A DNA stretch of 64,000 nucleotides from an uncultured bacterium (GCA_963804975.1 CAWDSG010000002.1:277015-341014); one strand, 5' to 3'. Shown: positions 9,982 to 57,817, counted from the first letter of the stretch. Translations and numbers: made by a program. The notes: a model not told the origin generated them from the letters alone.

Positions 9982-10082
9982 TTCAGAATATATCAACAAT
10001 ATAAGTTTGCGTTTGCTATAAAAAATGGTAGATTTTCAATATAAGTTTTAAGTTAAATATTATTAGTTCTAAATTAATTATT

Positions 10083-11216: not shown

Positions 11217-11245
11217 AATTTATTTATTAATTATTAATTAAAAAC

Positions 11246-12394
11246 ATGGAGCCAAATAAAAATTCAATGAAGTGGGTATGGACAGCGATTGTCATAGTAA
11301 TTGTCGTAATCATTATCGGTGTTTTTACATCCCAAAGTTCGGCAAAGACGGTAAAAATCGGCTTTATCAGTCCGATGAGCGGCCAATCTGCGGCATATGG
11401 AGAATATGCAAGAAGAGCTTTTGAAATCGGCTTGGACGATTGGAATTCAACACATACCTATAAAATGGAAGCGGTTTATGAGGATGGAAAATGCGCTCCG
11501 GCAGATGCCGCCACAGCTGCCAATAAATTGATAAATATAGATAAGGTAAATTTCATAATGACGTTTTGCACGGGGGAAACGAATGCTGTCGTGCCTATAA
11601 CCGAAAGTCATAAGGTTATTCTTTTGACTGCCGGAACCACTGCTCCGAATATCACAAAAGGCAAATATGTTTTCAGGAATATCGGTTCTGTGGGAAGCGG
11701 TCTGCCTAAACTGACGCAGATGGCCTATGACTTCAATAAAAAAATCGCTTTGATATCCGAGAATACCAACTACGCGATTTCATCGAAAGACGCGTTCAAA
11801 CAGCAATTTACTGCTCTTGGCGGAACGGTTGTATTTGATGAATCATTTGACTCAAAAAGTATGGATTTCAGGACAATCATTTCTAAATTAAAGAGTGCCG
11901 GTATTTCCTCTGTTTTTGTCGTTGTTCAAGCACTTGATAATTCTGGATTATTATTCAAGCAGATGAAAGAGCTAAATTATCATCCTCAAATTTTTTCTAC
12001 GGAAGCTGCAATTAGCGACAAATCTCTAGAAAAGTACATAACGGAAGGATATGAGAATATTATTGAAGGAGCAATTCTCATCACTCCTTACTTCGACAGG
12101 ACAAATTCAATAGCGGCTCACTTGTTAGGTGTGTATCAAGACAAATATCAATCAACAAAAGGCCCTATTCCTGAAGAATACCTAGCGACGCATTATGATG
12201 CTGTTTTTTTGCTCGGAGACGCTTCAATGAGTGTCGGGACAAATTCGGATTCAGTCAGGCAATATTTCCTGACAAAAATTAAAAATTGGCAGGGGGCAAT
12301 CGGCAGTTTCAGCTTTGATGCAACCGGCGATGCCGTAACAAGCGTAGTCGCCGAAACCGTTAAAGGCGGAAAAATTGTTCCCCTCACAAAATAA
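11246..12394 (+). CDS. Liv-type ABC substrate-binding protein, paralog 2
   Basis: Same architecture: TM anchor, KIGFISPMSGQSAAYGE...YEDGKCAPADAATAANKLINIDKV. Confidence 0.75.
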   Translation: MEPNKNSMKWVWTAIVIVIVVIIIGVFTSQSSAKTVKIGFISPMSGQSAAYGEYARRAFEIGLDDWNSTHTYKMEAVYEDGKCAPADAATAANKLINIDKVNFIMTFCTGETNAVVPITESHKVILLTAGTTAPNITKGKYVFRNIGSVGSGLPKLTQMAYDFNKKIALISENTNYAISSKDAFKQQFTALGGTVVFDESFDSKSMDFRTIISKLKSAGISSVFVVVQALDNSGLLFKQMKELNYHPQIFSTEAAISDKSLEKYITEGYENIIEGAILITPYFDRTNSIAAHLLGVYQDKYQSTKGPIPEEYLATHYDAVFLLGDASMSVGTNSDSVRQYFLTKIKNWQGAIGSFSFDATGDAVTSVVAETVKGGKIVPLTK

Positions 12395-12419
12395 TTATTA
12401 ATTATTAGTTTAAAATATT

Positions 12420-13550
12420 ATGGACCAAACAAAAAGCAATGCAGGGAAGTGGGTGTGGGGGATTATCATAATAATTATTTTGATTGTAATTTTTTCTCTA
12501 TCCGGTGGGAAAAAAGAAACCGGCCCGATAAAAATTGGGGTTATTACGCCTCTTTCTGGGGACACTGCTTTATATGGGGAGGTGGTAAGAAATAGCATTG
12601 AATTGGCAGTAAAAGACATAAATCTATCTGGCGGAATAAACGGCCGACAAATACAAACGATATACGAAGATAGCAAATGTTCGGGCAAGGAAGCTGCTAC
12701 CGCTGCACAAAAATTAGTTAATATAGATAAGGTTAAATATATCATTGGCGACTTTTGCAGTGGAGGAGTTCTTAGCGAAATTCCAATAACAGATCCGGCA
12801 AAAGTTTTTGTTATATCTCCTTCAGCATCAGCGCCTAAATTGTCAGGAATAAGCAAATATTTTGTCAGAAATTCTCCTAGCGATTCTATCACAGGAATTA
12901 TTCTTGCTGATTATCTTTTAAAAATGAAATATAAATCAGTAGCGATTATATCCGAGCAAACCGATTATGCTCAGGGTATAAGAGATGTATTTATAGCACA
13001 AGCTCAGAAAGATAATCTAACTGTCACAGCTAATGAAAATTTCGTCTCGGGAGTAACCGATTTTCGTTCTCAGCTTTCAAAGATAAAAATTCAAAATCCT
13101 GATGTATTATTTATTAATCCTCAGAGTCCGGTTAGCTTAGTGCAAATTGCCGAGCAAGCAAGGGTACTTGGCATTAAATCTCAATTTGTCGGGTCATTGG
13201 GCGGAACTGATCCAAATCTATATACAAAATACACTCAAGGTATGATTTTTGCCGATTTGACCGGTTTAACAGGTGATAAAGGCAAAGAATATATGAATAA
13301 GTATATTGCAGCGTATAATGTTGCTCCTAATATTCCGTTATATGATGGGGCAGCGTATGATGATGTTTACTTGATTACGCAAGCCATATCTTCTGTTGGA
13401 GATGATTCCACTAAAGTTGCGGAATATTTGCGAGCAATGCCTAGCTACACTGGCGTCCTTGGTACATATCACTTTGATAAAAATGGGGATCTCGTCGGAG
13501 CCGGTATAGTAATGCAAAAAGTATCTGGTAACAAGGTAATTGAATTATAA
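12420..13550 (+). CDS. Liv-type ABC substrate-binding protein, paralog 3 (closest to paralog 1)
   Basis: KETGPIKIGVITPLSGDTALYGE...GGINGRQIQTIYEDSKCSGK. Confidence 0.8.
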   Translation: MDQTKSNAGKWVWGIIIIIILIVIFSLSGGKKETGPIKIGVITPLSGDTALYGEVVRNSIELAVKDINLSGGINGRQIQTIYEDSKCSGKEAATAAQKLVNIDKVKYIIGDFCSGGVLSEIPITDPAKVFVISPSASAPKLSGISKYFVRNSPSDSITGIILADYLLKMKYKSVAIISEQTDYAQGIRDVFIAQAQKDNLTVTANENFVSGVTDFRSQLSKIKIQNPDVLFINPQSPVSLVQIAEQARVLGIKSQFVGSLGGTDPNLYTKYTQGMIFADLTGLTGDKGKEYMNKYIAAYNVAPNIPLYDGAAYDDVYLITQAISSVGDDSTKVAEYLRAMPSYTGVLGTYHFDKNGDLVGAGIVMQKVSGNKVIEL

Positions 13551-13636
13551 AAAATCAAAAACCTCTCAAAAAGAGGTTTTTGATTTGGTAATTTTATGAT
13601 AAAATATGAATTCAATATAAAATTTACACTGTAAAT

Positions 13637-14503
13637 ATGGATTATTTAATTCACCTTGCGATTCTGATAGGAATTTATGTAATACTCGGTATTTCGCTCA
13701 ACCTTGTCGTGGGTTATACCGGCCTGCTTTCTGTTACCCAAGCCGCTTTTTACGGAATCGGCGCTTACACCACGGCGATACTTCTGACGACTACAGGAAT
13801 GAATTTTTTCCTGTCGGTCATTGTCGGAATAATAATCACGGCGATTGCCAGCTTGCTTATCGGCTATGTCTTGTCCAAATTCAAAGACGATTATTATGCA
13901 CTCGGTTCCTTCGGTTTCAATATCATCGTTTACAGCATATTCTTAAATTGGCAAAGTTTTACCAGAGGTCCTCTCGGCATTCCGGGAATAAAAAGGCCGG
14001 AAATTTTCGGTTTCAGTTTCAATGAAAATATTTATTTTCTGATTCTCGTCGTTGTCATTGCGGTGATAATTTATTACATCGCAAAATTCCTAGTGAACTC
14101 GTCTTTCGGCAGAGTTTTGAAAACAATAAGGGAAGACGAAGAAGCGATTCAGGTTTTTGGATACAATACTTTGTTTTTCAAGCTGACTATCTTTGTCATC
14201 GGCGCCTGTATGGCAGCGGTTGCCGGTTCGCTTTTTGCCACATACATCACTTACATTGACCCGTCATCTTTTGCTTTAGCCGAATCAATCTTCATTCTTT
14301 CAATAATTATTTTGGGCGGACTTTCAAATAATAAAGGCGCTGTCATCGGGGCTGTTTTTCTGGTCCTATTGCCCGAAATCCTTCGATTTGTGGGCTTTTC
14401 TTCGGACATTGCAGCCCAAATGCGCCAGGTGACTTATGGCCTGATTTTGATATTATTAATGCTGTACAGGCCGCAAGGTTTGATAGGCGAGTATAAGATT
14501 TAG
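13637..14503 (+). CDS. livM: branched-chain amino acid ABC transporter permease (LivM family)
   Basis: Multi-TM protein; GYTGLLSVTQAAFYGIGAYTTAIL is characteristic of the LivM N-terminus. Confidence 0.75.
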   Translation: MDYLIHLAILIGIYVILGISLNLVVGYTGLLSVTQAAFYGIGAYTTAILLTTTGMNFFLSVIVGIIITAIASLLIGYVLSKFKDDYYALGSFGFNIIVYSIFLNWQSFTRGPLGIPGIKRPEIFGFSFNENIYFLILVVVIAVIIYYIAKFLVNSSFGRVLKTIREDEEAIQVFGYNTLFFKLTIFVIGACMAAVAGSLFATYITYIDPSSFALAESIFILSIIILGGLSNNKGAVIGAVFLVLLPEILRFVGFSSDIAAQMRQVTYGLILILLMLYRPQGLIGEYKI

Positions 14504-14540
14504 TTTAGTAAATTTATTAATTATTAATTTAAACTTTGAT

Positions 14541-15680
14541 ATGAAAAGCGTAAAAATTTGGTTCGGTGTAGTAATTGTAATCTTACTGGTTTTGTTAATT
14601 ATAACTCAAACAAAACAAAGCGCTTCGGACAAAACAATAAAAATCGGTTTCATAGGAGCTTTAAGCGGTAACGCATCGGCATTGGGTATTCCTCCCAAAC
14701 AAGCAATTGAAATTGCTGTTCAAGATATAAACGATAATGGCGGTATAGGCGGAAAAAAATTGGAAATTGTCTATGAAGATGGCAAATGCACCGCAAAAGA
14801 TGCTGTTTCCGCAATAAATAAACTAATTAATATAGATAATATAAATATAATTATCGGCGGACAATGCAGTTCTGAAACACTCGGAGCGGCACCTATTGCA
14901 GAATCAAACCATGTTCTTTTAATCTCTCCTATGGCAATGAGCCCGCAAATTACAGGGTCTGGAGATTTTATTTTTAGAACAGTTTATTCAGATCAATTAA
15001 CAGCAGAAAAGCTTGCGACATACGCAGTACAAAATCTTGGTGTTAAAAAAGTGGCTATGCTATTTGAAAAAACCGATTATTCACAGGACTATAAAAAGGC
15101 ATTCCTGAATAAATTCATTGCTCTTGGCGGAGAAGTCGTTTCAGAAGAAGATTATTCGTCAGATGTAACCGATTTAAAAACCGAAGTATCAAAAATAAAG
15201 GCGTCAAATCCGGACGCTGTTGTATTTGTGCCGCAAACCGAGGCCAAGGAAATACTAGGTTTGAATGTGCTAAACGAATTCACTCCAAAAATGAAAGTTT
15301 TATCAAGTATTGTTTTGGAGAAACAGTCGGTATTGGATTTGTCAAAAAATCTTAACCTTAATCTATATTATTCAATACCGGTTTATGACACAGGATCTGA
15401 TGCCGCCAAAAAACTTTTTAACGAATATACCGCAAAATACGGGAAGGTGGATGGAGTTCCGTTTCAAATGTTAAATTCTTATGACACCGTATATCTCTTG
15501 AAATATTTGGTTGAGAATAACGGAACTGATCCAATTAAACTTAAAAATTCTCTGTACAAAGTTAATGGATGGCAGGGAGCGTCAGGAGTATTTAGATTCG
15601 ATAAGAATGGAGACAGGATTTCAGACAACATCGTAATTAATGGCGTTAAAGACGGTAAAATTGTTAGTATAACGAAATAA
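14541..15680 (+). CDS. Liv-type ABC substrate-binding protein, paralog 4
   Basis: TM anchor plus IKIGFIGALSGNASALGIPPKQAIEIAVQDINDNGGIGGKKLEIVYEDGKC. Confidence 0.75.
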   Translation: MKSVKIWFGVVIVILLVLLIITQTKQSASDKTIKIGFIGALSGNASALGIPPKQAIEIAVQDINDNGGIGGKKLEIVYEDGKCTAKDAVSAINKLINIDNINIIIGGQCSSETLGAAPIAESNHVLLISPMAMSPQITGSGDFIFRTVYSDQLTAEKLATYAVQNLGVKKVAMLFEKTDYSQDYKKAFLNKFIALGGEVVSEEDYSSDVTDLKTEVSKIKASNPDAVVFVPQTEAKEILGLNVLNEFTPKMKVLSSIVLEKQSVLDLSKNLNLNLYYSIPVYDTGSDAAKKLFNEYTAKYGKVDGVPFQMLNSYDTVYLLKYLVENNGTDPIKLKNSLYKVNGWQGASGVFRFDKNGDRISDNIVINGVKDGKIVSITK

Positions 15681-15707
15681 ATCTGGCTTGCCAGTTGAAA
15701 TTAAATA

Positions 15708-16460
15708 ATGCAAGTCCTAAAAACCAAATCAATTACAAAACATTTTAGCGGGGTGCATGCCGTGGATAATCTTTCTATTTCTTTTGAAAGCGGGAAAATC
15801 ACCGGCATCATCGGGCCGAACGGCTCGGGCAAATCCACCTTGGTGAATTTATTTTCCGGAATCGTGCCTATCGATAGCGGAACGGTTGTTTTTGACAATG
15901 CAGAGGAATTAAAAAGCATAAAAACTTATGAAATAGCGGATTATGGAATCGTCAGGACTTTTCAGGAAGTCAGATTGTTTGAGCAGATTCCGGTTTTGGA
16001 TAATATTTTGGCGGTCATCACAAAAAGAAATGTCATCGGTTCTATTTTTGAAAAGCACAAGAAATTCCACTTGGACAGAGCGGAAAATGTGCTGAAAAGA
16101 GTCGGACTTTGGGAAAAAAGGCACGAACTGGCAAAAAATCTTTCTTACGGACAGAGAAAACTTTTGGAAATTGCCAGAGTTCTCGCAATGCTGAGCGGGG
16201 AAGGTGTGGAAGGGGAAATATTTTTGTTTGACGAGCCGTTTGCCGGACTATTCCAAGAAATGAAAGATGTCGTCCTCCAAATCATAAAAGAACTGAAAGA
16301 AAAAGGAAAAACCGTCGTTCTTATAGAACATAATATGGAAATCATCAGAAATATCTGCGACCATGTTTTTGTGCTGGATAGCGGTAAGCTATTGGCGCAA
16401 GGATCGCCCGATGAAGTCCTCTCAAAAAAAGAAGTTATTGAGGCGTATTTGGGGAAGTAA
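15708..16460 (+). CDS. livG: ABC transporter ATP-binding protein (LivG-like)
   Basis: Walker A GPNGSGKST, signature LSYGQRKLLEIARVL, Walker B IFLFDEPFAGL. Confidence 0.8.
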   Translation: MQVLKTKSITKHFSGVHAVDNLSISFESGKITGIIGPNGSGKSTLVNLFSGIVPIDSGTVVFDNAEELKSIKTYEIADYGIVRTFQEVRLFEQIPVLDNILAVITKRNVIGSIFEKHKKFHLDRAENVLKRVGLWEKRHELAKNLSYGQRKLLEIARVLAMLSGEGVEGEIFLFDEPFAGLFQEMKDVVLQIIKELKEKGKTVVLIEHNMEIIRNICDHVFVLDSGKLLAQGSPDEVLSKKEVIEAYLGK

Positions 16461-16495
16461 TTGACAAATAATTTAATAAACCATAATATAAAAAT

Positions 16496-17611
16496 ATGGA
16501 ACAAAATAATTTTTCGTTAAAAAATATCTGGGTCTGGATAGTTATTATATTGGTAATCGTTTTGATTCTGGTTTTCGGCAATAATGCAAATAAAAACGAA
16601 ATAAAAATCGGAATGATTTTACCGTTAACCGGGACAGCAGCTCAATATGGGGAACAGCTGAAAGATGGAGCACAGATTGCAGAAAGTGAATTAAAAAATA
16701 CCGGAGCTAATGTAAAAATTTTCTATGAAGATAGCGCAGCAGATCCGACAACAGGTCTTTCCGCTTACAGAAGATTGGTTGATGTAGATAAAGTTGATTA
16801 CATCGTTTCTGCCATGACTCGATCTACACTGCCTTTGCTTGATTCATTAAATAAGGACAAAATTCCCATGATAATGACTCTTGTCGCCGGAGATTGGGAT
16901 AAAACAAAAACTAAATATGCCTTGCGATTCTATCCTACAGCAAGACAATATGTCAGAGGAGATAATTCCGATAAAATTTTGAACGGACTGAAATCAGTCG
17001 GTGTTATAAATGTTAATGATGCGTACGGTCAATCTGTCGTAAAAGAAGTTCAGACTTTTGCAAAAGAAAAAGGCTTTACAGTCGGAATGGTAGAAAGCTA
17101 TTCGGCAAATAATACCGACTACCGTTCAAGTTTATTGAAATTAAAAAATAGCGGTGTGGATTCGATCTTGATGATATCTTCAAGCCCGGTTGAGCTATCC
17201 GGCATAGCAAAACAATATAAGGAATTGAATATCAAACAAAAGCTTTTTGATGCTTCAGTCGGCTTGTCCAATCCAATAATAAGAGAGCAAAATAAAGATA
17301 TTCTTGAGGGCGTAGTCACTAAAGCGACAAAAGCTGAATTAACCAATAAAGATAAATCAGCCCAAGATTTCTTTGATAAATATGAGAAACTATACAATAG
17401 CGAACCGTATTTTCCCGGAATATTTGGCTATGAATCCATAAGATTGATAAATGACTTTAATTCTCAAAATGGCTCTGATTTTGTTGAAAAAGCTTCCAAT
17501 TTGAAATCTATCTCAACAATAATGGGCGATATAAAGATCGACAATTACCAAGAAATAAATCCACCGATATATAATACTGTCATAAGAAATGGAGAGTTGG
17601 TGGAGTTCTAA
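16496..17611 (+). CDS. Liv-type ABC substrate-binding protein, paralog 5 (divergent)
   Basis: TM anchor plus IKIGMILPLTGTAAQYGEQLKDGAQIAESEL...KIFYEDSAADPTTG. Confidence 0.7.
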   Translation: MEQNNFSLKNIWVWIVIILVIVLILVFGNNANKNEIKIGMILPLTGTAAQYGEQLKDGAQIAESELKNTGANVKIFYEDSAADPTTGLSAYRRLVDVDKVDYIVSAMTRSTLPLLDSLNKDKIPMIMTLVAGDWDKTKTKYALRFYPTARQYVRGDNSDKILNGLKSVGVINVNDAYGQSVVKEVQTFAKEKGFTVGMVESYSANNTDYRSSLLKLKNSGVDSILMISSSPVELSGIAKQYKELNIKQKLFDASVGLSNPIIREQNKDILEGVVTKATKAELTNKDKSAQDFFDKYEKLYNSEPYFPGIFGYESIRLINDFNSQNGSDFVEKASNLKSISTIMGDIKIDNYQEINPPIYNTVIRNGELVEF

Positions 17612-17638
17612 AAGGATATAAAATTAATAATTTAAAAT

Positions 17639-18733
17639 ATGAAAAAAATTTTTACTTGGTTAGTTGGTATTATAGCTGTGATTATTATAATTTTGATTTT
17701 TCAGAATAATACGACAAATCAGTCGGAGATAAAGGTTGGTGTCATCGGTCATTTCAGCGGCAATTACGCAGATTATGGAGTACCGATGAAAAATTCTATA
17801 GAGCTAGCAGCAGACGCGATTAATAAAAGCGGAGGCATAAATAACAGAAAAGTCCAATTGTATATTGAAGATGATGCCAGCAGTGCGTCTACAGCCGCAA
17901 CGGCAATGAACAAATTGATTTCTGTTGACAAGGTAAATTATATTTTATCTGCACAAGCGAGTGCAATAACTGCTGCGATTACTCCCATTGCACAAAGCAA
18001 CAAACGAATCTTGATGATTACATTAGGTTCTGCTCCTGACCTGACGAAAGTCGGCAATTATATTTTCCGTTCTGTTCCGTCCGATAGCTATCAAGGAATA
18101 AAAATGGTTGATTTGATAAATAATGATTTGAAATCCAAAAAAGTTGCCGGTTTGTATATAAATGACACTTATGGCGCGGGAATCAGGGATATCATAAATG
18201 AAAATCAAAAAGTTGCTAATGCAGATACCGAGATGTTTGAATCGCAAGCTACTGACGTAAGAACTCAATTATTGAAAATCAAACAAAGCGGTGCCGATAC
18301 ATTGGTAATCGTCGCTCATACTGAATATCCTGCGATTTTTAAACAGATAAAAGAATTGAGTTTGAATGTAAAAATTATCGCTTCGGAAACATTCAAAGAC
18401 AAAAATATTTTAAAGCAATGCGGTTCTAATACAGAAGGAGCAATGGTTACATTTATGGCGGATCAGAAAGATTATGTTGACTTCAATGATAATTACCAAA
18501 AAATGTTTAATACGGCTCCGTCGGCGTATAGCATGTATGGTTATGACGGGTTTATTGCTTTGGCTAAGGCAATTGAAAATAGCGGAGATAATGTTGAGAA
18601 AGTTAAAAACAATTTATCCAAAGTGCAATTCAACGGAGCTAGCGGTAATGTCGGCTTTGACGAAAATAGGAATAGAACAGGAATCACATATTCTGTTTTT
18701 AAAGTTGTTAATGGAGAATTTGTAAGATTATAA
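17639..18733 (+). CDS. Liv-type ABC substrate-binding protein, paralog 6
   Basis: TM anchor plus IKVGVIGHFSGNYADYGVPMKNSIELAADAINKSGGINNRKVQLYIEDDASSAST. Confidence 0.7.
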   Translation: MKKIFTWLVGIIAVIIIILIFQNNTTNQSEIKVGVIGHFSGNYADYGVPMKNSIELAADAINKSGGINNRKVQLYIEDDASSASTAATAMNKLISVDKVNYILSAQASAITAAITPIAQSNKRILMITLGSAPDLTKVGNYIFRSVPSDSYQGIKMVDLINNDLKSKKVAGLYINDTYGAGIRDIINENQKVANADTEMFESQATDVRTQLLKIKQSGADTLVIVAHTEYPAIFKQIKELSLNVKIIASETFKDKNILKQCGSNTEGAMVTFMADQKDYVDFNDNYQKMFNTAPSAYSMYGYDGFIALAKAIENSGDNVEKVKNNLSKVQFNGASGNVGFDENRNRTGITYSVFKVVNGEFVRL

Positions 18734-18754
18734 TTTTGTGCAATAATAGCAAGA

Positions 18755-19480
18755 ATGAAACAGGAATTTTTGCTAGAAATAAAAGATATCCACGTTCACT
18801 ACGGCGGAGTCAAAGCTTTAGACGGAGTGGGGATTATGCTTGATGAAGGCGAGATCGTTGCGCTTATGGGTCCGAACGGCGCGGGAAAATCCACCATACT
18901 CAAGACAATTTTCGGCCTTGCTCCTATTTATAGCGGAAAAGTTCTCTGGCACGAGAAAGAAATAAATCCCATACCGTATGAAATGGTTGATCGAAGCGTT
19001 TCTTTTGTGCCTCAAGGAAGAAGAGTGTTCAAAAGTCTTACTGTTAAAGAAAATCTGGAAATCGGAGCATATTCCGTGCGCAAGGATGAAGTAAAAGAGA
19101 AATTGGAAGATGTTTTGGATATATTTCCTATGCTGAAAGAAAAGATAAACGAAAAATCAGGGCATTTATCGGGCGGTCAGCAGCAGATGCTTGCAATCGC
19201 AAGGGGACTGATGATAGACCCGAAAGTTTTGCTTTTGGACGAGCCGACCTTGGGGCTTTCGCCAAAAATCGTGAAAGAAGTTTTTGAAAAAATAAAAGAA
19301 ATAAACCAAAGGCACAAAACAGCGATACTTATCGTAGAGCACAATATAAAATCAGTTCTTGATATTGTTGATCGGGCTTATATTTTGGATAAAGGAAAAA
19401 TCGTGGCGGCCGATATTTCAAAAAATATTATCCATAGTGACATTTTAGAAAAGATTTTTACTGGCAAACCAATCAATTAA
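18755..19480 (+). CDS. livF: ABC transporter ATP-binding protein (LivF-like)
   Basis: Walker [10 protein letters not shown], signature [15 protein letters not shown], Walker [13 protein letters not shown]. Confidence 0.85.
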
Positions 19481-36178: not shown

Positions 36179-39100
36179 ATGAAATTTAAGAAATTTCATT
36201 TATTAATATTTTGCCTGATATTTTTTGGATTTTTATTTCAATTCCGTTATTCTTTTGCTGAAGTTATTTTTCAAATTTCTCCATTAGATTATTCTTCATT
36301 TGTAGGTCAAGAAGCAATTGCCTCTAATTATTACAGAGGTTTTTATTCTTGGATTTGCACCGCTACAAACGGTTGTCCCATTGGCAGCACTATCTACAAT
36401 GTCGGGGTGTGGCTGACAAAGGTCGGGAATCCGGACGGATTAGCGATGCAGGAAAATCAAAACTTTATGAGCACAAATTTTAATTCAGTATCAAATATTG
36501 TTGATGCCTCCGATATTCCCAGCGATAATTCAAAGTTAATTTATTTTTATTTTCCACAAGGCGTTACGTTAACTGAAACGACTGCCTTTAACCTTTTTAT
36601 CTCAACAAATTCAAACATTATATATCCGAACGATTTTTATTATATAAAAGTATGGAATGGTCTGTACGGGGAGGATGATTATACTTATCCGCAAAGCTGG
36701 TGTTTTTCCAACTGGGGATGCGCAAGCTCTCGGCCATTCATTTCTCTGGAATCAACTTCTACCGATCTTTTCGCTAAACCGAAAATTACTCTTCTCGGTG
36801 ATAATCCATTAAAAATTTCAGCAAGCACCGCTATGGCTTATACAGATCCCGGCGCAACGGCCCTAGATAATCTCGGTAACGACATTACCGCAAACATATC
36901 GGTATCAAATAATGTCGATATCACTGCGACCGGAACTTACACTGTCGTTTATACCGTATCGGATAAAACCGGTAATATTGCTTCATCAACTAGAGTTGTG
37001 GATGTTGTTGCGCCTGATGCGCCGGAAGCCAAACCAACTTGCTGTTCAAATGTTTTGTTTATTCCGGGGCTTGAAGCGAGCAGATTGTACGATGAAGATG
37101 GAAATCAAATCTGGGAGCCGGGAATTCTTGAAGATAATTCACAACTTGATTTGGATGAAAGCGGTACGCCGATTCGCGATGATATTTATACCAAAGATGT
37201 TATTGATAACGCGTACGTGCCCGTGCTTGGTAATATTTATAAATCTTTCATCGCCAAAATGAATGAGATGAAATCTGCCGGGACGATCAATGACTGGTCT
37301 GCGGCGCCGTATGATTGGCGATTGTCGCTTGACGAGATTTTGAATAACGGAAACGAGGATTCCGCCGGAGATATTTATTATTCCGGAGACAATGGCTCAA
37401 CTTCAAGCCCGTATATCATCACAGAGCTTCGCCGTCTTGCTGAGAGTTCTCAGACGGGCAAAGTGGCGATTATCGCGCATTCAAACGGCGGGCTTGTGGC
37501 AAAAGCTCTGACGGACGCGCTCGGTTCCGATGCATCAAAACTTATTGACAAGATTATTTTTGTCGCCGTGCCGCAAGTCGGAACGCCGAAAGCGATTGGC
37601 GCGATTCTCCACGGTTTTGATTCCGGTTTGCCGATTTCGTGGTTTGGATTTTATTTCTCACCTGAAGACGCAAGAAATCTTGGAGAAAATATGCCGTCAG
37701 TTTACAACTTGCTTCCGTCAGCCGATTATTTTTCAAATGTGAGCGACCCTGCAGTGACTTTTGATAATTCGGATTTTCTTGCGCCATGGCGGAAAAAATA
37801 TGGCAATAAGATTTCATCAGAAAATAAGCTGGAAAATTTTCTGGACGATCAATCGCGGCCGGCCTTGCTGGCATTAGATTCGCTTGCTTTTCCAATTTCT
37901 GCGAATAAAAATCTCTTGAATGATGCGCAAAATCTTCACGACAGCGAGCTTGATGATTGGACTTTGCCTTCGGGAGTCGCGCTCACCGAGATTGCCGGAT
38001 GGGGAGAGGATACGGTCAAATCAATAAATTATTACGAAGGATACGAACTTGATTGTCCTATTTTAAGTATTTTTTCTCTCTTCTGCGCTACTATAAAACC
38101 GACGCTTGAATATGATCCCATTATGACTTCAGACGGCGATGGCACAGTTGTCACGCCAAGCGCGCTTTGGATGGCGACTTCAACTGAAGTAGGAAGGTAT
38201 TGGGTGAACTTAAATCAATATAATGCAGATAATCTTAATATACAAAATGGTTTAGGATTACTTCCTTTTAAACATGCCGATATTCTTGAAGTGCCAAATC
38301 TTACTGATTTCATTAAAAATATAATTATGCAAAATTCGGATTCATTGCCACAATATATTTCCACTTCATCGCCTCTGGATACCGACATTAAAAAACAGCT
38401 TCACTTCATTCTTCATTCGGGCGGATCTTCCGGCGCATCTCTCGCCGTCTATGACAACCTTGGCAATCTCACGGGCTTTTCCACAACAAGCAATCTCGTG
38501 ATGGAAGAAATTCCTGATAGCGATTATCAGACACTCGGATACGTCACATATATCAGTGTTCCGGCAAATATCGCGGCGCATGCAGTGGTGCATAGAGGCG
38601 GAAAAAGCGGAAGCAGTGGAAATAACGGAAGCGAATCATTCACTCTCAATATTCAAGAAACTGAAAGTGAAACAATAATCGCTTCCACCACTTTTGCGGC
38701 GGTGCCTTCAGGCGTAAGTACGACTGCAACGATTGATATTCCCGCGGATGCAAACGGCGGCATTGCAAGCAGTTCGCCTTTGGTCGTGGATGAGAACGGC
38801 AATGGAGAAGCAGAAATCACAATACAGCCGATTCTCAATAGCACAGTATTGCCGGATTTTGCCACGACGACTCTTGCCACAACAACAGATGAATCAAATG
38901 ATAATCAAAGCAATAATCAAAATAATCAAACTAATGGCAATCAAAATGAAACAAACCAAATTAGCGCTGGTATTGGCGCCGGTTCTTCATATTTTGCTCC
39001 TTTGCCGCTTGCTAACAATGAAACATTTTCTGCAATCATAATTCCTGATGTTGTGAATGCGCTGAATAAAATTCAGCCGGTAAAACAAATCGCTAATTCT

Positions 39101-39343
39101 GGAACTATTTTGCCGAATCCAGTTTCAGTCGGCGCAAATAATACAAATCCATATTCCGTTATAAAAACCGTTTCAAATACAAATTCAAGCGCTAGAAATG
39201 CTATTGCCGCAGCCATAAGCGCAAATCCAATCGCTTCAAGCATAAGCGAAGCAGCGGTTGGCAATTTTCCCATCAGTGTTAAGATACTTATTGTGATCGG
39301 CGTGTTGCTTATCGCGCTGATTATCTGGATTAAATTTATTTAA
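36179..39343 (+). CDS. surface-anchored secreted protein: signal peptide, DUF5011-like Ig domain, alpha/beta-hydrolase (lipase/esterase-like) domain, Asn/Gln-rich linker, C-terminal TM anchor
   Basis: Signal MKFKKFHLLIFCLIFFGFLFQFRYSFA. DUF5011-like ITLLGDNPLKISASTAMAYTDPGATALDNLGNDIT...TGTYTVVYTVSDKTGN. Nucleophile elbow VAIIAHSNGGLVA (GxSxG-type AHSxGG, as in lipase/PGAP1-like hydrolases). NDNQSNNQNNQTNGNQNETNQ linker. C-terminal ILIVIGVLLIALIIWIKFI. Confidence 0.7.
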   Translation: MKFKKFHLLIFCLIFFGFLFQFRYSFAEVIFQISPLDYSSFVGQEAIASNYYRGFYSWICTATNGCPIGSTIYNVGVWLTKVGNPDGLAMQENQNFMSTNFNSVSNIVDASDIPSDNSKLIYFYFPQGVTLTETTAFNLFISTNSNIIYPNDFYYIKVWNGLYGEDDYTYPQSWCFSNWGCASSRPFISLESTSTDLFAKPKITLLGDNPLKISASTAMAYTDPGATALDNLGNDITANISVSNNVDITATGTYTVVYTVSDKTGNIASSTRVVDVVAPDAPEAKPTCCSNVLFIPGLEASRLYDEDGNQIWEPGILEDNSQLDLDESGTPIRDDIYTKDVIDNAYVPVLGNIYKSFIAKMNEMKSAGTINDWSAAPYDWRLSLDEILNNGNEDSAGDIYYSGDNGSTSSPYIITELRRLAESSQTGKVAIIAHSNGGLVAKALTDALGSDASKLIDKIIFVAVPQVGTPKAIGAILHGFDSGLPISWFGFYFSPEDARNLGENMPSVYNLLPSADYFSNVSDPAVTFDNSDFLAPWRKKYGNKISSENKLENFLDDQSRPALLALDSLAFPISANKNLLNDAQNLHDSELDDWTLPSGVALTEIAGWGEDTVKSINYYEGYELDCPILSIFSLFCATIKPTLEYDPIMTSDGDGTVVTPSALWMATSTEVGRYWVNLNQYNADNLNIQNGLGLLPFKHADILEVPNLTDFIKNIIMQNSDSLPQYISTSSPLDTDIKKQLHFILHSGGSSGASLAVYDNLGNLTGFSTTSNLVMEEIPDSDYQTLGYVTYISVPANIAAHAVVHRGGKSGSSGNNGSESFTLNIQETESETIIASTTFAAVPSGVSTTATIDIPADANGGIASSSPLVVDENGNGEAEITIQPILNSTVLPDFATTTLATTTDESNDNQSNNQNNQTNGNQNETNQISAGIGAGSSYFAPLPLANNETFSAIIIPDVVNALNKIQPVKQIANSGTILPNPVSVGANNTNPYSVIKTVSNTNSSARNAIAAAISANPIASSISEAAVGNFPISVKILIVIGVLLIALIIWIKFI

Positions 39344-39775
39344 ATGAATAAAACAAAAAATATAGTTTTATTGATTTCTGTGATTATAGGTGGAGGATTG
39401 ATTTTATTGAGTTTTATTACAATATCTGGTTTTTGTGATTTTTTAGACAATATTCATAATCCAAATGTTTTTGATACAACTTGCATAAATTATATTTATA
39501 ACACCAGAATGATATTTTTTATTTTTCCTTTTGTTTTCCTTTTCTCTCTCATTACTTATTTTATGAAAGATGAAATTTTCTCTGCATGGTGGAAATTTAC
39601 CTATAAATGGGCGCTTTTAACTATGATTCTTGTCCTTATAACTCCAGGCGGAAGCGGTTCTTTTTTCCCAAGTTTAATCAGTCCAGGCGTGGTCGCATTC
39701 CTTATGTCCTGCCTTTTCGCCATAATTTCTATTGTTATTATAATTGTTAAACTCATTCAAACCCATAAGAAATAA
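39344..39775 (+). CDS. small polytopic membrane protein (about 4 TM), hypothetical
   Basis: Start overlaps the upstream stop (TAAATG); hydrophobic segments throughout. Confidence 0.45.
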   Translation: MNKTKNIVLLISVIIGGGLILLSFITISGFCDFLDNIHNPNVFDTTCINYIYNTRMIFFIFPFVFLFSLITYFMKDEIFSAWWKFTYKWALLTMILVLITPGGSGSFFPSLISPGVVAFLMSCLFAIISIVIIIVKLIQTHKK

Positions 39776-39887: not shown

Positions 39888-40361
39888 GTGAATATAGATA
39901 TCAGCAACTTCGAAGAAATTAAAATAAAGGGAGAAGAAATGTACAAAAATATTTCTGATACTTTTTGTCCATATTTAGGAAAAACAGTATCTTTTAATGC
40001 CCAGGGAATAGAACATTTAAAATTCAAAAATAGAGAGCGGGCAAGACCACCGAAAGATCAGTATATGAGATTGAAACTCATTCACCTTGCTCCAGAAGTT
40101 TTAAAAAATTCAAAAACAGTTCAGGGTATATTGGAGACCAAAAAATTTGAAACAATAAAAGTTAATAGCAGAAAAGATACTATTTTAAAACCAGTAAATT
40201 ATTTTGAGTTTATTGCAGTTATAAAAAGAAACAGAGTTAAAGTTATTGTCAAACAAATTGATGGTGGAAATCTTTTCTTTTGGAGTCTGATTCCTTTTTG
40301 GAGAATGAATGATGATACAATGACCAGAATATTACATGATGGAAGTCCAGAAGAAGATTAA
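39888..40361 (+). CDS. hypothetical protein (157 aa)
   Basis: ORF with no recognisable motif; followed by a terminator hairpin. Confidence 0.4.
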   Translation: MNIDISNFEEIKIKGEEMYKNISDTFCPYLGKTVSFNAQGIEHLKFKNRERARPPKDQYMRLKLIHLAPEVLKNSKTVQGILETKKFETIKVNSRKDTILKPVNYFEFIAVIKRNRVKVIVKQIDGGNLFFWSLIPFWRMNDDTMTRILHDGSPEED

Positions 40362-40518: not shown

Positions 40519-41286
40519 ATGTCCGAATACTACAAAGCCAATAGAACACGCAATCTTTATGACCCGAAAGCGAAGGAGCCGTTCAAATTGTCGCGGTCAA
40601 AAATAGAGCTTTTTATGAATTGCCCGAAATGCTTTTACTTGGACCGCCGACTTGGCATAGGCAGGCCGCCGGGATTCCCGTTTGCGCTCAATTCGGCGGT
40701 GGATCATTTGCTGAAACTTGAATTTGATATTCACCGGACAAAAGGGGAACAGCATCCTCTGCAAAAAGAATATAAAATAGACGCAATACCGGCAAAACAC
40801 GAAGAGCTTAATGTTTGGCGGGAGAATTTCAAGGGTATGCAGTTTTATCATAAAAAAACAAATTTCATGCTTACCGGCGCCATAGATGATTTATGGATAA
40901 ACAGCAAAGGCGAATATATCGTCGTGGATTACAAATCAACAGCAAAAGAAGAAGCGGTTTCTGTGCTTGATAAGGATTGGCAGGACGGCTATAAAAGGCA
41001 GATGGAAATTTATCAGTGGCTTCTGCGGAATATGGGGTACAAGGTTTCGGATGTCGGATATTTTGTTTATTGCACGGGCAAGTTGGACAGAAAAGCTTTT
41101 GACAAGAAGCTTGAATTTGACGTGAACCTGATAGAATATAAGGGAAGCGATAAATGGATTGAAAAAACAGTGCAGGATATGAAAAAATGCCTGGACGGGA
41201 AAATGCCGAAAGCGGACCCGAAATGCGATTATTGCAATTATCGCGACGCGGCAGGGGAAGTGGAACCTGTCCGGTCAGGAAAATAA
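40519..41286 (+). CDS. PD-(D/E)xK nuclease, Cas4/RecB-like with 4-Cys cluster (stand-alone)
   Basis: N-terminal Cys pair FMNCPKCFY; core IDDLWINSKGEYIVVDYKST (D...DYK); motif QMEIYQWLL...Y (QxxxY); C-terminal KCDYCNY. This is the Cas4/AddB-type Fe-S nuclease layout. Confidence 0.6.
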   Translation: MSEYYKANRTRNLYDPKAKEPFKLSRSKIELFMNCPKCFYLDRRLGIGRPPGFPFALNSAVDHLLKLEFDIHRTKGEQHPLQKEYKIDAIPAKHEELNVWRENFKGMQFYHKKTNFMLTGAIDDLWINSKGEYIVVDYKSTAKEEAVSVLDKDWQDGYKRQMEIYQWLLRNMGYKVSDVGYFVYCTGKLDRKAFDKKLEFDVNLIEYKGSDKWIEKTVQDMKKCLDGKMPKADPKCDYCNYRDAAGEVEPVRSGK

Positions 41287-41290
41287 ATTT

Positions 41291-41692
41291 ATGAAAAATT
41301 ACGAATGGTATCAACAATTGAAAAAGCCGAAGTTTGCTCCGCCAGCGGGGATTTTCGGGCCGGTGTGGACAATTCTCTACATAATCATTCTCATTTCATT
41401 CGGATATGTGGCATATCTGTCTTTCATCAATAAAATTCCCTTTCTTATTTTTCTGCCGTTCATTCTCAATCTGATTTTCAACGTCATTTATACGCCGATA
41501 CAGTTCGGCTTGAAAAATAATTGGCTTGCCGCAGTTGATATACTTTTCGTCCTCGCAACTCTGATATGGTTTATCGTCGCAATCTTTCCATTTGTTTCTT
41601 GGGTCTCCTATGCAAATACCCCATATCTTTTATGGGTTTCTTTTGCCACAATATTGCAACTCACTATCACTTGGATGAATAGAAAGAATTAA
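41291..41692 (+). CDS. TspO/MBR family (tryptophan-rich sensory protein-like) membrane protein
   Basis: WYQQLKKPKFAPPAGIFGPVWTILYIII matches the TspO N-terminal signature; multi-TM; 133 aa, short for the family. Confidence 0.55.
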   Translation: MKNYEWYQQLKKPKFAPPAGIFGPVWTILYIIILISFGYVAYLSFINKIPFLIFLPFILNLIFNVIYTPIQFGLKNNWLAAVDILFVLATLIWFIVAIFPFVSWVSYANTPYLLWVSFATILQLTITWMNRKN

Positions 41693-53172: not shown

Positions 53173-55845
53173 TTGTTAATTTTTAATAAAAAAATGAAAC
53201 ACTCTTTATTTGGAATACGAACCCTCGCGATTGCCGCAGTAGCTTTTGTGAGCGGTCTTTTAATGTTCGCCGGAACCGCATCGGCCGCTTTTCTTGCGCA
53301 TACGGATAGCACTACAGCAAATAGCACTTCTACTTTAGGTTTGATAGGAACGTCAGCCACCTCTTCCGATGCAACAATTGCAACAACTTCAATCACCGGC
53401 GGCGGTACTACCATATCAATTACCTCCGTAGCTTCAGGAACAGCCACAATCATAGTTACGGATGATAGTGACTATACAGCAACTATAGGTGTAGCAGTAG
53501 CTTCCTCCGGAGCAATCACAATCGGAACTATTGCACCAAACGCAGTAACAATTAACGTAACGGGAATTTCTTTGGATAAAATAAGCCAAGCTCTTGCGGT
53601 CGGTAACGGGTATCAGCTTACAGCCACCGTTACCCCTGAAGATGCTTGGGACCCAACTGTAAATTGGTCTTCAAGCGATGAAGATGTTGCAACAGTTGAT
53701 TCCGATGGTCTTATAGATGCAATTGACGTCGGAAACGCAACAATCACAGCGGAAACAGTGGATGGCAGTTTTACCGCTACCGATTATTTAACAATAGATC
53801 CTGAACCGACAATTTCTTCCATTTCTCCGTCTTCTGGCCCTACCGCCGGCGGCACAGAAATAACTATTACAGGAACTGGATTTGAAAATGATGCAGAGGT
53901 ATCGACTTTATATGGTTTGCTGGAGATTATCGCTTCAAGCAGTACAGAAATTATTACAACGACTCCTGCAACAAGTTCGGAAAATATAATGCCTATTTTC
54001 GTTATCAATCCCTATGATGGCGGCATTGCATTTAACTTATTCACTTACGATGACACGAATCCTTCCTTTGGCGCTCACATAGGAACTTCAACAATAATAA
54101 CAGGAGCCACAACAACAATCGGTGTTACTGTAAATGATAATGTATCCGTAGCTTCCGCAGAAATCAGTTTTGATGATGGCGATACATGGCTTCCTATGAC
54201 TGAAACTGCAGCCAGCGCTTTAAGAAATTTAGCTATTCAAAGACGATACACTTATAACGAATATGTTCCGGAAGGATCGCCGGATATTGATTATGAAGTT
54301 CAAGCATTTGATACGGCGGGCAATTCCGCGACATTGAATGATACGCTGATAATATTACCGTCAATTAGCGATATTTCTCCACCTTCCGGCGCAACCATAG
54401 GCGGAACTTCCATAACCATTACAGGAACTGGATTTGTAGACGGTGCGGATGTAACCATCGGCGGCGTCGAAGCAACCGATATCGTGGTGGCTAGCAGCAC
54501 TGAAATTACAGCAACAACTCCTGTGGGCACAGTCGGTCCGGCAGATGTTATCATTACCAATTCTGATGACGGATCAGTTGATGCTTTATCTGCATTCACC
54601 TATACCGATTCGGAAGTGGAAGCAGCTAAAATTACAGCGGAGACCCTCGGGACGATTCACATCGGAGATTCGGTATTGGACAAAGCTCAGGTATTGGTGG
54701 ACGATGAATACGCCGTTTCTATAACCGGTGGTACAGCCGATGACACATATATTGATGATTCAGGCACGGCAATAGCGGCGTCCGGTGGAGAAACAGGGAC
54801 AATCGGTTTTACCGTCACTACTATTACGCCATCAGAGGATACGGCTGATACTGGAGTATTGGATATTTCGGTAATATCCACACCGGTGATTGATACTATT
54901 TCGCCATCTTTTGGCCCAGCTTCAGGAGGAACAGCCATAACTATCATAGGAACTGGCTTTTTGGGCGGTGAAGGCGACGATGTAACTATCGGCGGCACAG
55001 AAGCAACAAATATTGATTTTGTAAGCGATACTGAAATTACAGCCACAACTCCTGCAGGTGCAGGCGGTCCAGCAAATGTTGTTGTTGCTAATTATGATGG
55101 TGGCCGAACTACTTCAGTCGGAGGATTTTCTTATCTTTCCGGTGGGCACCATGCTGCTGTTACAAGTGTTTCTCTCAATGAAACCAGCCGAACTCTTACT
55201 GTCGGCAATACGGATCAGCTTACAGCAACTGTTGTTCCGTCCAATGCTACCAATCAAACTGTAAATTGGTCATCAAGTAATTCCAGCGTTGCAACCGTTT
55301 CTGCTACTGGTTTAATAACTGTCGTTGGAGCCGGTTCGGCGACAATTACTGCAACTACTGCGGATGGCGGTTATACAGCAACCGATGTTTTGACGGTTAA
55401 CTCGGCATCGACAGTTGTGTCGGGCGGCGGAGGAGGCGGAGGAGGATCACCTGTTGTTACAACAACCCCAACGAATACTTCGGCGCTTACGCAAGCGCAG
55501 ATAAGCGCGATTGTCGCATTACTTCAGTCGTTCGGAGCCGATGCGGAAACAGTTGCCAACATCCAGGCGATTCTTTCCGGACAAGCAACACCTGTTTCTT
55601 CGGCAACAGTATCGGCATACATTTTTACCTCGGATCTGACTATAGGAAGCAAAGGCACGGCTGTTGTCGCATTGCAGCAGATTCTTGTTAAGGAAGGATA
55701 TCTTGTAATGCCGGCAGGCGTAGCGGAAGGTTACTTCGGAACGCTTACGCAAGCGGCTCTCGCCAAATTCCAAGTTGCAAACGGTATTTCACCGGCAGCG
55801 GGATATTTCGGCCCTAAGACAAGGGCATTTCTGAACGGCAAATAA
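53173..55845 (+). CDS. secreted surface protein with Big_2 and IPT/TIG Ig-like domains and a C-terminal peptidoglycan-binding (PG_binding_1-like) domain
   Basis: Signal peptide (alternative start 53194, MKHSLFGIRTLAIAAVAFVSGLLMFAGTASA). Big_2-like LAVGNGYQLTATVTPEDAWDPTVNWSSSDEDVATVDSDGLIDAIDVGNATITA. Repeated TIG-like SPSxGPxxGGTxITIxGTGF units. C-terminal TIGSKGTAVVALQQILVKEGYL...EGYFGTLTQAALAKFQVANGISPAAGYFGPKTRAFL. Confidence 0.7.
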   Translation: MLIFNKKMKHSLFGIRTLAIAAVAFVSGLLMFAGTASAAFLAHTDSTTANSTSTLGLIGTSATSSDATIATTSITGGGTTISITSVASGTATIIVTDDSDYTATIGVAVASSGAITIGTIAPNAVTINVTGISLDKISQALAVGNGYQLTATVTPEDAWDPTVNWSSSDEDVATVDSDGLIDAIDVGNATITAETVDGSFTATDYLTIDPEPTISSISPSSGPTAGGTEITITGTGFENDAEVSTLYGLLEIIASSSTEIITTTPATSSENIMPIFVINPYDGGIAFNLFTYDDTNPSFGAHIGTSTIITGATTTIGVTVNDNVSVASAEISFDDGDTWLPMTETAASALRNLAIQRRYTYNEYVPEGSPDIDYEVQAFDTAGNSATLNDTLIILPSISDISPPSGATIGGTSITITGTGFVDGADVTIGGVEATDIVVASSTEITATTPVGTVGPADVIITNSDDGSVDALSAFTYTDSEVEAAKITAETLGTIHIGDSVLDKAQVLVDDEYAVSITGGTADDTYIDDSGTAIAASGGETGTIGFTVTTITPSEDTADTGVLDISVISTPVIDTISPSFGPASGGTAITIIGTGFLGGEGDDVTIGGTEATNIDFVSDTEITATTPAGAGGPANVVVANYDGGRTTSVGGFSYLSGGHHAAVTSVSLNETSRTLTVGNTDQLTATVVPSNATNQTVNWSSSNSSVATVSATGLITVVGAGSATITATTADGGYTATDVLTVNSASTVVSGGGGGGGGSPVVTTTPTNTSALTQAQISAIVALLQSFGADAETVANIQAILSGQATPVSSATVSAYIFTSDLTIGSKGTAVVALQQILVKEGYLVMPAGVAEGYFGTLTQAALAKFQVANGISPAAGYFGPKTRAFLNGK

Positions 55846-57046: not shown

Positions 57047-57817
57047 TTATTTCAATATCGTATCGATTATATTTTTTACATTCGCAAGCGGTATCGCGCC
57101 GTTAAGCGTTATTTCTTTGTTATCCGAAGAAATTAAAATGTTCTGCGCCAAATTCTGATTTGCGGTGTACATATTTATCGTATTTTCCTTGTCACTTGTG
57201 AGAGAAGTTTTCAAAATCATCACGGAGAAAGGAGTACCCTGCGCTCCGGCGGCAACCGCATCGTTTCCTTCCTGCCGTATAAGGCCGGCATAAGTGCTGC
57301 CCGCAAGGCATGCATTGAATTTTGTTACATTAAGTCCGAGTTCGCCGGCAATCATAGGCAATATAGCGGGATTCAAACTGTCGGTTGATGTTGTCGTAGA
57401 GAATATATTATCAATATAGTTCCAGAAAACCGCATTTCCGCCTTGTGCATTTGCGCATTCAATCGCGTCTGCTTCGTTCGGTGAAAGAGAATGGACGGTG
57501 AAATGGCGGTATACCCATGCCACCTGGCCGTCTTTGCCGTAAGTATTCACAACTGTTTGCATTGAATTTTGAAATACTTTGCAATACGGGCATTCGGTGT
57601 CGGAATATTCAACGATGACGATCGGAGCGTTCGGATTCCCAAGAATGTGATCATCTGTATTTATCGGCTTGATTGAAATGCTTGATGCCTGCGCTTGCGC
57701 ATTATTATTTGCCGGTGCGGGAGTATTGCTTTTGTTTGACAGAAGTATCGCGCCGGCTATCAATATGCCAACTACGATAATTGCTCCAGGTATAGATAAA
57801 TTATTTTTTTCTTCCAT
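57047..57817 (-). CDS. DsbA-family thiol:disulfide oxidoreductase, membrane-anchored
   Basis: N-terminal TM; CPYC active site in IVEYSDTECPYCKVF. Confidence 0.7.
   Translation of the reverse strand: MEEKNNLSIPGAIIVVGILIAGAILLSNKSNTPAPANNNAQAQASSISIKPINTDDHILGNPNAPIVIVEYSDTECPYCKVFQNSMQTVVNTYGKDGQVAWVYRHFTVHSLSPNEADAIECANAQGGNAVFWNYIDNIFSTTTSTDSLNPAILPMIAGELGLNVTKFNACLAGSTYAGLIRQEGNDAVAAGAQGTPFSVMILKTSLTSDKENTINMYTANQNLAQNILISSDNKEITLNGAIPLANVKNIIDTILK

Follow-up and report, generated by a model that had tools for sequence, protein, structure and literature searches.

The stretch analysed here, which we refer to as the window, comprises 64,000 nucleotides from an uncultured bacterium, a very small and probably lipid-dependent member of the Patescibacteria (GCA_963804975.1 CAWDSG010000002.1:277015-341014). 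At positions 36179..39343 on its plus strand it contains an open reading frame (ORF) that runs from ATG to TAA and encodes a 1054-residue protein, which from its sequence is an LCAT-family alpha/beta-hydrolase with an intact serine-hydrolase triad, predicted to be exported and anchored at the cell surface by its C terminus. This ORF is a real gene and not a chance reading frame, since an identical protein is on public record from a 606-kb contig (P0001) and homologues match it with E-values down to 0. Its stop codon directly abuts the start of a second ORF on the same strand (39344..39775, with TAAATG at the junction), which encodes a 143-residue integral membrane protein of four helices that we call the partner. 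The enzyme is of a kind already known, and we do not see in the locus a novel type of system; what is chiefly new is the conserved partner.

The enzyme begins with a predicted Sec-type signal peptide (residues 1–27; 36179..36259), recognised by rules of hydropathy and sequence, in which a hydrophobic core at residues 8–26 leads into a segment ending YSFA, with EV as the first residues beyond it. The next segment is an N-terminal module of about 170 residues with four cysteines (residues 28–200; 36260..36778), which BLASTP finds only in some members of the family (P0036, P0043, P0077 and P0088) at 32–35% identity, with E-values of 3e-13, 2e-15 and 2e-06 for P0036, P0043 and P0077 respectively and a single long aligned segment starting at residue 64 for P0088. 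We found no above-threshold Pfam match for this module and no paralogue of it within the window. A Bact_surface_Ig-like domain (DUF5011, PF16403; residues 203–276; 36785..37006) follows, matched by Pfam across hidden Markov model (HMM) positions 1–71 of 71 with an E-value of 1.2e-17 and a score of 64.1 bits where the cut-off is 27. The domain shares 59% identity with residues 498–573 of a giant adhesin of 2354 residues encoded at 1931..8995, a segment that is one of four copies in that protein, and the claim that the two proteins have this domain in common is therefore borne out.

The catalytic domain, of LCAT/LPLA2 type with helical cap-like insertions, occupies residues ~287–725 (37037..38353), as judged from Pfam, an AlphaFold2 (AF2) model and Foldseek, and is followed by a C-terminal beta-sandwich of about 155 residues (residues ~738–893; 38390..38857) that is all-beta at model residues 458–609 and carries an invariant aspartate, Asp871, in a DENGNG loop. 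Beyond it lies a low-complexity spacer or stalk of 138 residues, rich in Asn, Ala, Ser and Thr by composition (residues 894–1031; 38858..39271), whose Asn/Gln-dense centre (residues 901–930; 38879..38968) has 15 Asn or Gln in 30 residues; the spacer is not conserved across the family, and the tails of the homologues differ. The protein ends in a predicted transmembrane anchor (residues 1032–1052; 39272..39334) with Kyte-Doolittle values up to 3.1; an AAVG motif stands ahead of it, and after it come KFI and the stop codon. The original prediction, made from the sequence, had listed a signal peptide, a DUF5011-like Ig domain, a lipase domain with an AHSNGG nucleophile elbow, an Asn/Gln-rich linker and a C-terminal membrane helix. 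All of these parts are there, but the module at residues 28–200 and the beta-sandwich had been overlooked.

A similar hydrophobic tail is present in P0002, P0005 and the giant adhesin, and the adhesin tail '...LLAAVGLALSSIPKNLIAIILSILVLLIAGYIIYKIQED' (window 8870..8995) resembles the tail of the enzyme '...SEAAVGNFPISVKILIVIGVLLIALIIWIKFI' (39245..39343). In P0002, P0005, P0009 and P0014 the motifs TAVVGN, SATVGSFP, VASVGNIP or TASIGSVS stand ahead of the final hydrophobic helix. The tails shared by both large surface proteins could represent a lineage-specific signal for C-terminal sorting or anchoring.

Only one hydrolase model in Pfam, LCAT (PF02450), matches the protein above its curated threshold (43.6 bits against a cut-off of 21), aligning residues 317–659 with HMM positions 29–353 of 392, and hits to it are precomputed for nearly all of the homologues. 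The PGAP1-like model (PF07819) falls below its threshold (19.2 bits against 24.3) and covers only residues 422–473, around the nucleophile; DUF7379 (PF24096) also falls short (29 bits against 33), is restricted to residues 421–471 and is weak among the precomputed hits, and we rejected both assignments. Scanning the protein against NCBIfam gave no meaningful match, and a PDB sequence search with this protein as the single query returned, apart from two weak matches to lipases, hits to the Ig domain alone. Some members of the family are already named "lipase/acyltransferase domain-containing protein" by NCBI.

An AF2 model of residues 282–898, built on an alignment of 69 sequences (A1), has a mean predicted local distance difference test score (pLDDT) of 86.6 and a predicted template modelling score (pTM) of 0.90. 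When this model is compared with the PDB by Foldseek, the first match is LPLA2 (4x97; E 1e-9, target-normalised TM-score 0.64) and the next human LCAT (5bv7), and one or other of these two proteins occupies ranks 1–5 and 7–11, with E-values of 1e-9 to 3e-6, probabilities of 1.0 and target TM-scores of 0.53–0.64. Also matched are Tle4, a type VI secretion system (T6SS) phospholipase (4r1d, E 1e-8), the Bacillus lipase BlEst2 and the Legionella phospholipase PlaB, and all of the significant structural neighbours are lipid-active. Of the earlier description as lipase- or PGAP1-like, the lipase part thus stands and the PGAP1 part does not.

The putative triad consists of Ser435 in AHSNGG (codon 37481..37483), Asp654 in DGDGTV (38138..38140) and His699 in KHADILE (38273..38275), all on the plus strand, and each of the three residues is invariant in 69/69 aligned homologues. 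Neither result named beforehand as refuting the original prediction, a missing triad or a nearer match to a non-hydrolytic fold, came about. The elbow lies at residues 433–438, where the AF2 model has a strand before Ser435 and a helix after it. The contexts His434-Ser435-x-Gly-Gly (H153-S154-x-G156-G157 in A1) and Gly653-Asp654 (G372-D373) are as invariant as His699 itself (H418), and N-terminal PG[IL]E and YDWR blocks and a cysteine pair (C626 and C636) are conserved in the same alignment. The residue after PG is Leu297, at the position that lies beside the oxyanion hole in LPLA2; this residue is normally hydrophobic in LPLA2-related lipases, and the triad of LPLA2 itself is Ser165, Asp327 and His359 (PMC6027918).

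BLASTP against 119 homologues defines a conserved unit of about 610 residues (residues ~287–895) made up of the hydrolase and the beta-sandwich; conservation extends to residue ~895 in all 119, which places the beta-sandwich within the family core, and most of the 120 listed homologues are 45–59% identical over these 610 residues. Thus, although DUF5011 and the Asn/Gln-rich stalk are present as first described, they lie outside the unit that defines the family, and DUF5011 belongs to a large set of accessory N-terminal modules that vary and are interchangeable. Across the family these include a parallel beta-helix, CBM96/DNRLRE, DUF5011, chitobiase-type domains and others. At least three classes of tail follow the beta-sandwich in homologous loci L008–L087: a membrane or amphipathic helix, as in the window enzyme; a domain of ~170 residues that closes with '...PGLVI....T..G.....Y'; and one that closes with 'NWSTKGL..GYWY.I.AKLDDG...SV.VGLR'. 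Each of these classes is accompanied by the partner. Since both the N-terminal modules and the tails vary, the design keeps the catalytic core constant while heads and tails can be exchanged.

A phmmer search of 1.84 billion representative proteins returned 1,554 clusters at E <= 1e-30 and 2,674 at E <= 1e-3 (clusters defined at 50% identity), the best matches spanning the full core, and a scan of one genome per species placed the enzyme in at least 336 genomes. Several genomes contain two or three copies. Genome titles point to Patescibacteria of the Paceibacteria type (Kaiserbacteria, Moranbacteria, Nomurabacteria, Lloydbacteria and Minisyncoccota), and among the hits examined all named records are Patescibacteria, save a few doubtful automatic labels of metagenome-assembled genomes (MAGs). 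Many third-party MAG records are titled 'uncultured Candidatus Saccharibacteria' or 'Bdellovibrionales', with closest relatives of the Paceibacteria type; these labels are probably unreliable and therefore unfit for inferring distribution. Literature searches linking LCAT or PF02450 to Patescibacteria found no paper in the library searched.

The partner went unmentioned in the original prediction, yet it is the locus's most informative feature. Pairing of the enzyme with the partner is near-obligate. In each of the first four homologous loci a gene for a protein of 134–144 residues with no Pfam domain lies 0–17 nt downstream of the enzyme gene and the other flanks differ; all four proteins are homologous to the product of window ORF 39344..39775, giving five of five loci when the window is included. 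In the species-genome scan a gene of the partner family lies directly downstream in 69 of 72 enzyme loci, counting enzyme ORFs for which 450 nt or more of sequence lies downstream; among the three unpaired loci, the enzyme ORF of one is the first half of a gene that is split, and in another an overlapping frame gives a weak hit. Reverse look-ups starting from the partner landed just after an LCAT-family gene in all three cases, and in two of these the queried protein was the second of two tandem small genes. Separate paralogues of the enzyme each have a partner of their own. The two genes are probably translationally coupled.

Pairwise identity matrices of enzyme and partner are correlated (r = 0.67, Mantel p = 0.001), which, as far as sequence comparison goes, shows the two to be inherited as a unit, although shared descent alone can yield a correlation of this size. 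Median identity is 29% for the partner and 46% for the enzyme. The partner is tandemly duplicated in L002, L008, L055, L065, L088 and L090, L074 has two enzyme genes in tandem, and several genomes have two or three enzyme-partner pairs (e.g. DDWQ01000005 and JACROD010000005/12/24).

The partner family comprises at least 346 clusters, all annotated as "hypothetical" but for one, which JGI automatically labels "general stress protein CsbA". A Pfam scan of the window partner found no family, a scan of 58 members gave only scattered noise (for example a holin model with three transmembrane helices in 8 of 58, best E 0.0085), and Foldseek comparison of the partner model with the PDB found no fold match. 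In the AlphaFold model (pLDDT 78) four long helices take up nearly the whole length, and the loops on the outside are roughly 10–25 residues long. Three features are conserved: a cysteine pair (C31 and C47) in the first loop, the block SLITYxMKDEVFxAWWxFAxWW from the end of helix 2 to the start of helix 3, and a glycine-rich loop between helices 3 and 4. By the positive-inside rule, both termini and the tryptophan-rich block would be cytoplasmic, with the cysteine and glycine loops facing outward. The strongest conservation is therefore at the predicted cytoplasmic interface and not in the outer loops, which, though weak evidence, makes us lean slightly towards a membrane-intrinsic role.

The partner is under-called in public data. 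One assembly has an 88-residue product only (L001 3431..3697), and the exact 143-residue sequence is absent from a collection of 15 billion proteins; homologue alignments nonetheless support the longer product, which includes helix 1 and the cysteine pair.

A gene for a TspO/MBR-family membrane protein (41291..41692, plus strand; PF03073, E 3.6e-27) lies 1.5 kb downstream in the window. On the same strand and downstream of the partner, TspO recurs in nine lineages (the window, L002, L009, L010, L013, L016, L027, L039 and L043), and in L013, L039 and L043 it is directly adjacent to the partner; the link holds for a subclade and not for the whole family. TspO proteins bind hydrophobic ligands, and a functional link to the enzyme-partner module is therefore possible. 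Between partner and TspO the window has an ORF for 157 residues (39888..40361) and a PD-(D/E)XK nuclease gene (40519..41286), and at the same position L002 has a DpnI-like gene and two ORFs (11786..14140), so that restriction- or nuclease-type genes look to have been inserted at the same spot in both. We rejected 39888..40361 and 40519..41286 as parts of the module because they are not conserved beside it at other loci.

Upstream, a pair of strong hairpins, both with a U-run behind them, lies at 36032..36105 on the plus strand, between a gene resembling orotidine-monophosphate decarboxylase (PF00215) and the enzyme gene. They were recognised from the sequence and by RNA folding (-42.1 kcal/mol, z = -5.6 against shuffles), were not listed by a simple terminator scan, and are likely terminators; enzyme and partner therefore probably begin a transcript of their own. 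A promoter scan around the gene found 21 candidates against 14.9 ± 3.9 in shuffled sequence, which is not clearly in excess, and we made no use of it. The surroundings are otherwise housekeeping, with ribosomal proteins upstream and rpoB/rpoC downstream, and no tRNA or Rfam elements were found within the window.

Several genes farther off in the window are also of note. Positions 57047..57817 on the minus strand encode a DsbA-like protein of thioredoxin fold (PF13462, PF01323). This fits extracellular formation of disulfides and is relevant to the cysteine pairs of both enzyme and partner. Positions 9100..19480 hold an ATP-binding cassette (ABC) transporter cluster of branched-chain-amino-acid type with two permease and two ATPase genes and apparently six paralogous genes for substrate-binding proteins of ~370 residues (Pfam was checked for 10083..11216 only), an unusually large set of binding proteins. 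Another large surface protein, 890 residues long and encoded at 53173..55845, combines three IPT/TIG and two Big_2 domains with a peptidoglycan-binding domain at its C terminus.

Among known proteins, LPLA2 (PLA2G15) and LCAT resemble the window enzyme in the PF02450 match, the best fold, the (A/G)HSxG elbow, the GDGTV aspartate motif and the large insertions in the core. The window enzyme differs in being bacterial, membrane-tethered and multi-domain, at 12–16% identity, and in having an extra C-terminal beta-sandwich in its core, variable N-terminal modules and a near-obligate membrane partner gene. An alpha/beta-hydrolase followed by a C-terminal beta-sandwich is found in BlEst2 of Bacillus licheniformis (6wpx) and in Thermoanaerobacter EstA3, and in both the beta-sandwich packs on the catalytic domain; it is needed for long-chain substrates in EstA3, whereas the C-terminal domains of BlEst2 are described as inhibitory (PMC10816834). 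The Foldseek match to BlEst2 has an E-value of 2.7e-5 with low TM-scores of 0.27 and 0.36, and the sandwiches are alike in architecture; neither protein has a reported membrane partner, an anchor or variable N-terminal modules.

The gene order also recalls two systems in which a lipase is encoded beside a helper. In the LipA-LipB/Lif operon (9g8u) the gene for a secreted lipase, itself a weak fold match to the window enzyme, is followed by that for a membrane-bound helper. Lif is a single-pass protein whose large periplasmic helical domain embraces the lipase. The partner, at 143 residues with four helices over nearly its whole length and such short outside loops, is unlikely to be a steric chaperone, and we rejected a foldase role of the Lif type for it. 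Tle4-Tli4 (4r1d) offers a strong fold match and likewise places a membrane-targeting lipase beside a small dedicated partner gene, although the target-normalised TM-score is 0.46 for Tle4 against 0.64 for LPLA2. Tli4-type immunity factors are soluble proteins or lipoproteins; the window partner is polytopic with very short loops. Membership in a T6SS was rejected, as there are no T6SS genes in the window or in five homologous loci, and the enzyme has a predicted Sec signal peptide.

We favour, with modest confidence, the interpretation that the enzyme is an active surface phospholipase A/acyltransferase of the LCAT/LPLA2 type that acts as a unit with its four-helix partner to scavenge or attack foreign membrane lipids. 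The enzyme would be exported by Sec and held outside the cell by its C-terminal membrane helix and the flexible spacer of ~140 residues, and variable N-terminal binding modules, here the module at residues 28–200 and DUF5011, would bring the core to a foreign surface. There Ser435, Asp654 and His699 would take an acyl chain off a membrane glycerolipid to form an acyl-enzyme intermediate, and the chain would then be released to water or to an acceptor, as by other enzymes of the family; LPLA2 and LCAT are known to pass through an acyl-serine intermediate that is resolved by hydrolysis or transacylation (PMC6027918). A lipid-auxotrophic Patescibacterium might in this way gain acyl lipids, weaken the membrane of its host, or both. 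The partner, lying in the producer's own membrane, could shield that membrane from the tethered lipase or gate the lipase, in the manner of an immunity protein, or could accept the lipid products. A secreted phospholipase has been proposed to disrupt the host membrane and supply lipids in Vampirococcus lugosii, a predator of the Candidate Phyla Radiation (CPR) (PMC8080830); that case concerns a single gene in the Absconditabacteria lineage with no conserved partner described, and is alike in proposed role.

Several points weigh against this interpretation. A PDB search with the 69-sequence profile returned nothing at E <= 0.01, and thus gave no alignment to LPLA2 or LCAT at the level of residues, and identity to LPLA2 and LCAT is as low as given above, so the family assignment rests on the Pfam HMM and the fold, and the geometry of the putative triad is a presumed one. 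We infer the lipid substrate, and likewise the direction of action and the role of the partner, for which Pfam and Foldseek offer no recognisable family, fold or catalytic residues; the host-associated or episymbiotic lifestyle is assumed from the phylum. An alpha/beta-hydrolase with the same triad could also hydrolyse non-lipid esters, and a link with carbohydrates is known for several N-terminal modules that other members carry (beta-helix, CBM96 and chitobiase-type). The part that shared descent can play in the identity correlation counts on the same side.

An alternative explanation is that enzyme and partner are a toxin-immunity pair, in which a contact-dependent phospholipase lyses hosts or competitors in the manner of T6SS Tle effectors, the membrane partner is the immunity factor and any nutritional gain is secondary. 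Tle4, from the Tle4-Tli4 complex, is among the best structural matches (E 1e-8), and effector and immunity genes are characteristically adjacent according to one preprint (bioRxiv 10.1101/2023.03.28.534661). The pairing is strict, with a partner for each paralogue, and both the tandem duplicates of the partner at several loci and its faster divergence, seen in the median identities of 29% and 46%, are in keeping with immunity. However, it is the catalytic core that is constant in this family and the N-terminal modules that vary. Polymorphic toxins are known for the opposite pattern. In addition, the core is unusually conserved (45–59%), the surroundings are housekeeping with no secretion-system or mobile context in the flanks examined, and the best-conserved segment of the partner is at the predicted cytoplasmic interface and not in an exposed loop able to plug an active site. 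With a constant core, variable N-terminal modules and housekeeping contexts, a nutritional, targeting enzyme fits better than a mobile toxin, and we regard toxin-immunity as possible but rather unlikely, while noting that it is compatible with the scavenging interpretation and that the two are not mutually exclusive. A different proposal, which we consider quite unlikely, turns the activity inward: the enzyme would act in cis on the outer leaflet of its own cell, producing lysolipids or shuffling acyl chains to ease curvature stress in ultrasmall cells, with the partner regulating or positioning it. The enzyme is attached to its own membrane and has an integral membrane protein as its partner, enzymes of the LCAT family are transacylases as well as lipases (PMC6027918), and a lysolipid enrichment in CPR bacteria has been proposed to relieve curvature stress (PMC7242380). 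Self-remodelling does not easily account for a spacer so long or for N-terminal modules that are highly variable and of adhesin type, features that point outward to other surfaces, or for several paralogues per genome with different N-terminal modules.

The substrate itself might be something other than lipid, with the enzyme stripping cell-wall polymers, polysaccharides or polyesters on the surface of the host of their acyl or acetyl groups and carbohydrate-binding modules serving as guides. Triads of alpha/beta-hydrolases are chemically promiscuous, and the family includes beta-helix, CBM96/DNRLRE and chitobiase-type N-terminal modules. But the significant structural neighbours are without exception lipases or phospholipases, LCAT alone passes its Pfam threshold, and interfacial lipases typically have a large helical cap-like insertion such as the one seen here, and we find a non-lipid esterase improbable. 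The adhesin-type domains, with DUF5011 common to the giant adhesin, could even suggest a catalytically dead adhesin that keeps the hydrolase fold purely as a scaffold for binding; given that serine, aspartate, histidine and a GxSxG-type elbow are invariant in 69 diverse sequences, which would not be expected of a pseudo-enzyme, this appears highly improbable.

If the enzyme is indeed a lipid-scavenging surface phospholipase, it would bear on a general problem in the biology of these organisms. A large part of bacterial diversity consists of Patescibacteria, which are unable to make their own membrane lipids. Lysolipids are a product of phospholipase A-type enzymes. By lipidomics they are enriched in CPR cells (PMC7242380), and a 2024 review describes Patescibacteria as without lipid synthesis, with no mechanism of lipid uptake or breakdown identified (PMC11665869). 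The locus described here is a concrete, widespread and strongly conserved candidate for lipid acquisition in Patescibacteria, and the shortness of both genes, which suits them to expression and assay, makes the question directly testable. The design of a constant core with variable heads suggests a way in which lineages or paralogues could be aimed at different host surfaces. A bolder and more speculative proposal, which we think unlikely as it stands, is that enzyme and partner, joined in some lineages by TspO, form a dedicated lipid-acquisition machine in which the surface enzyme, as an LCAT-type transacylase, removes acyl chains directly from the phospholipids of a host cell and passes these chains, or the lysolipids that result, to the partner in the membrane of the symbiont itself. 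If true, this would allow a membrane to be built without fatty-acid synthesis, acyl carrier protein or acyl-CoA, and would account for the lack of lipid pathways in CPR bacteria as well as for their lysolipid-rich membranes.

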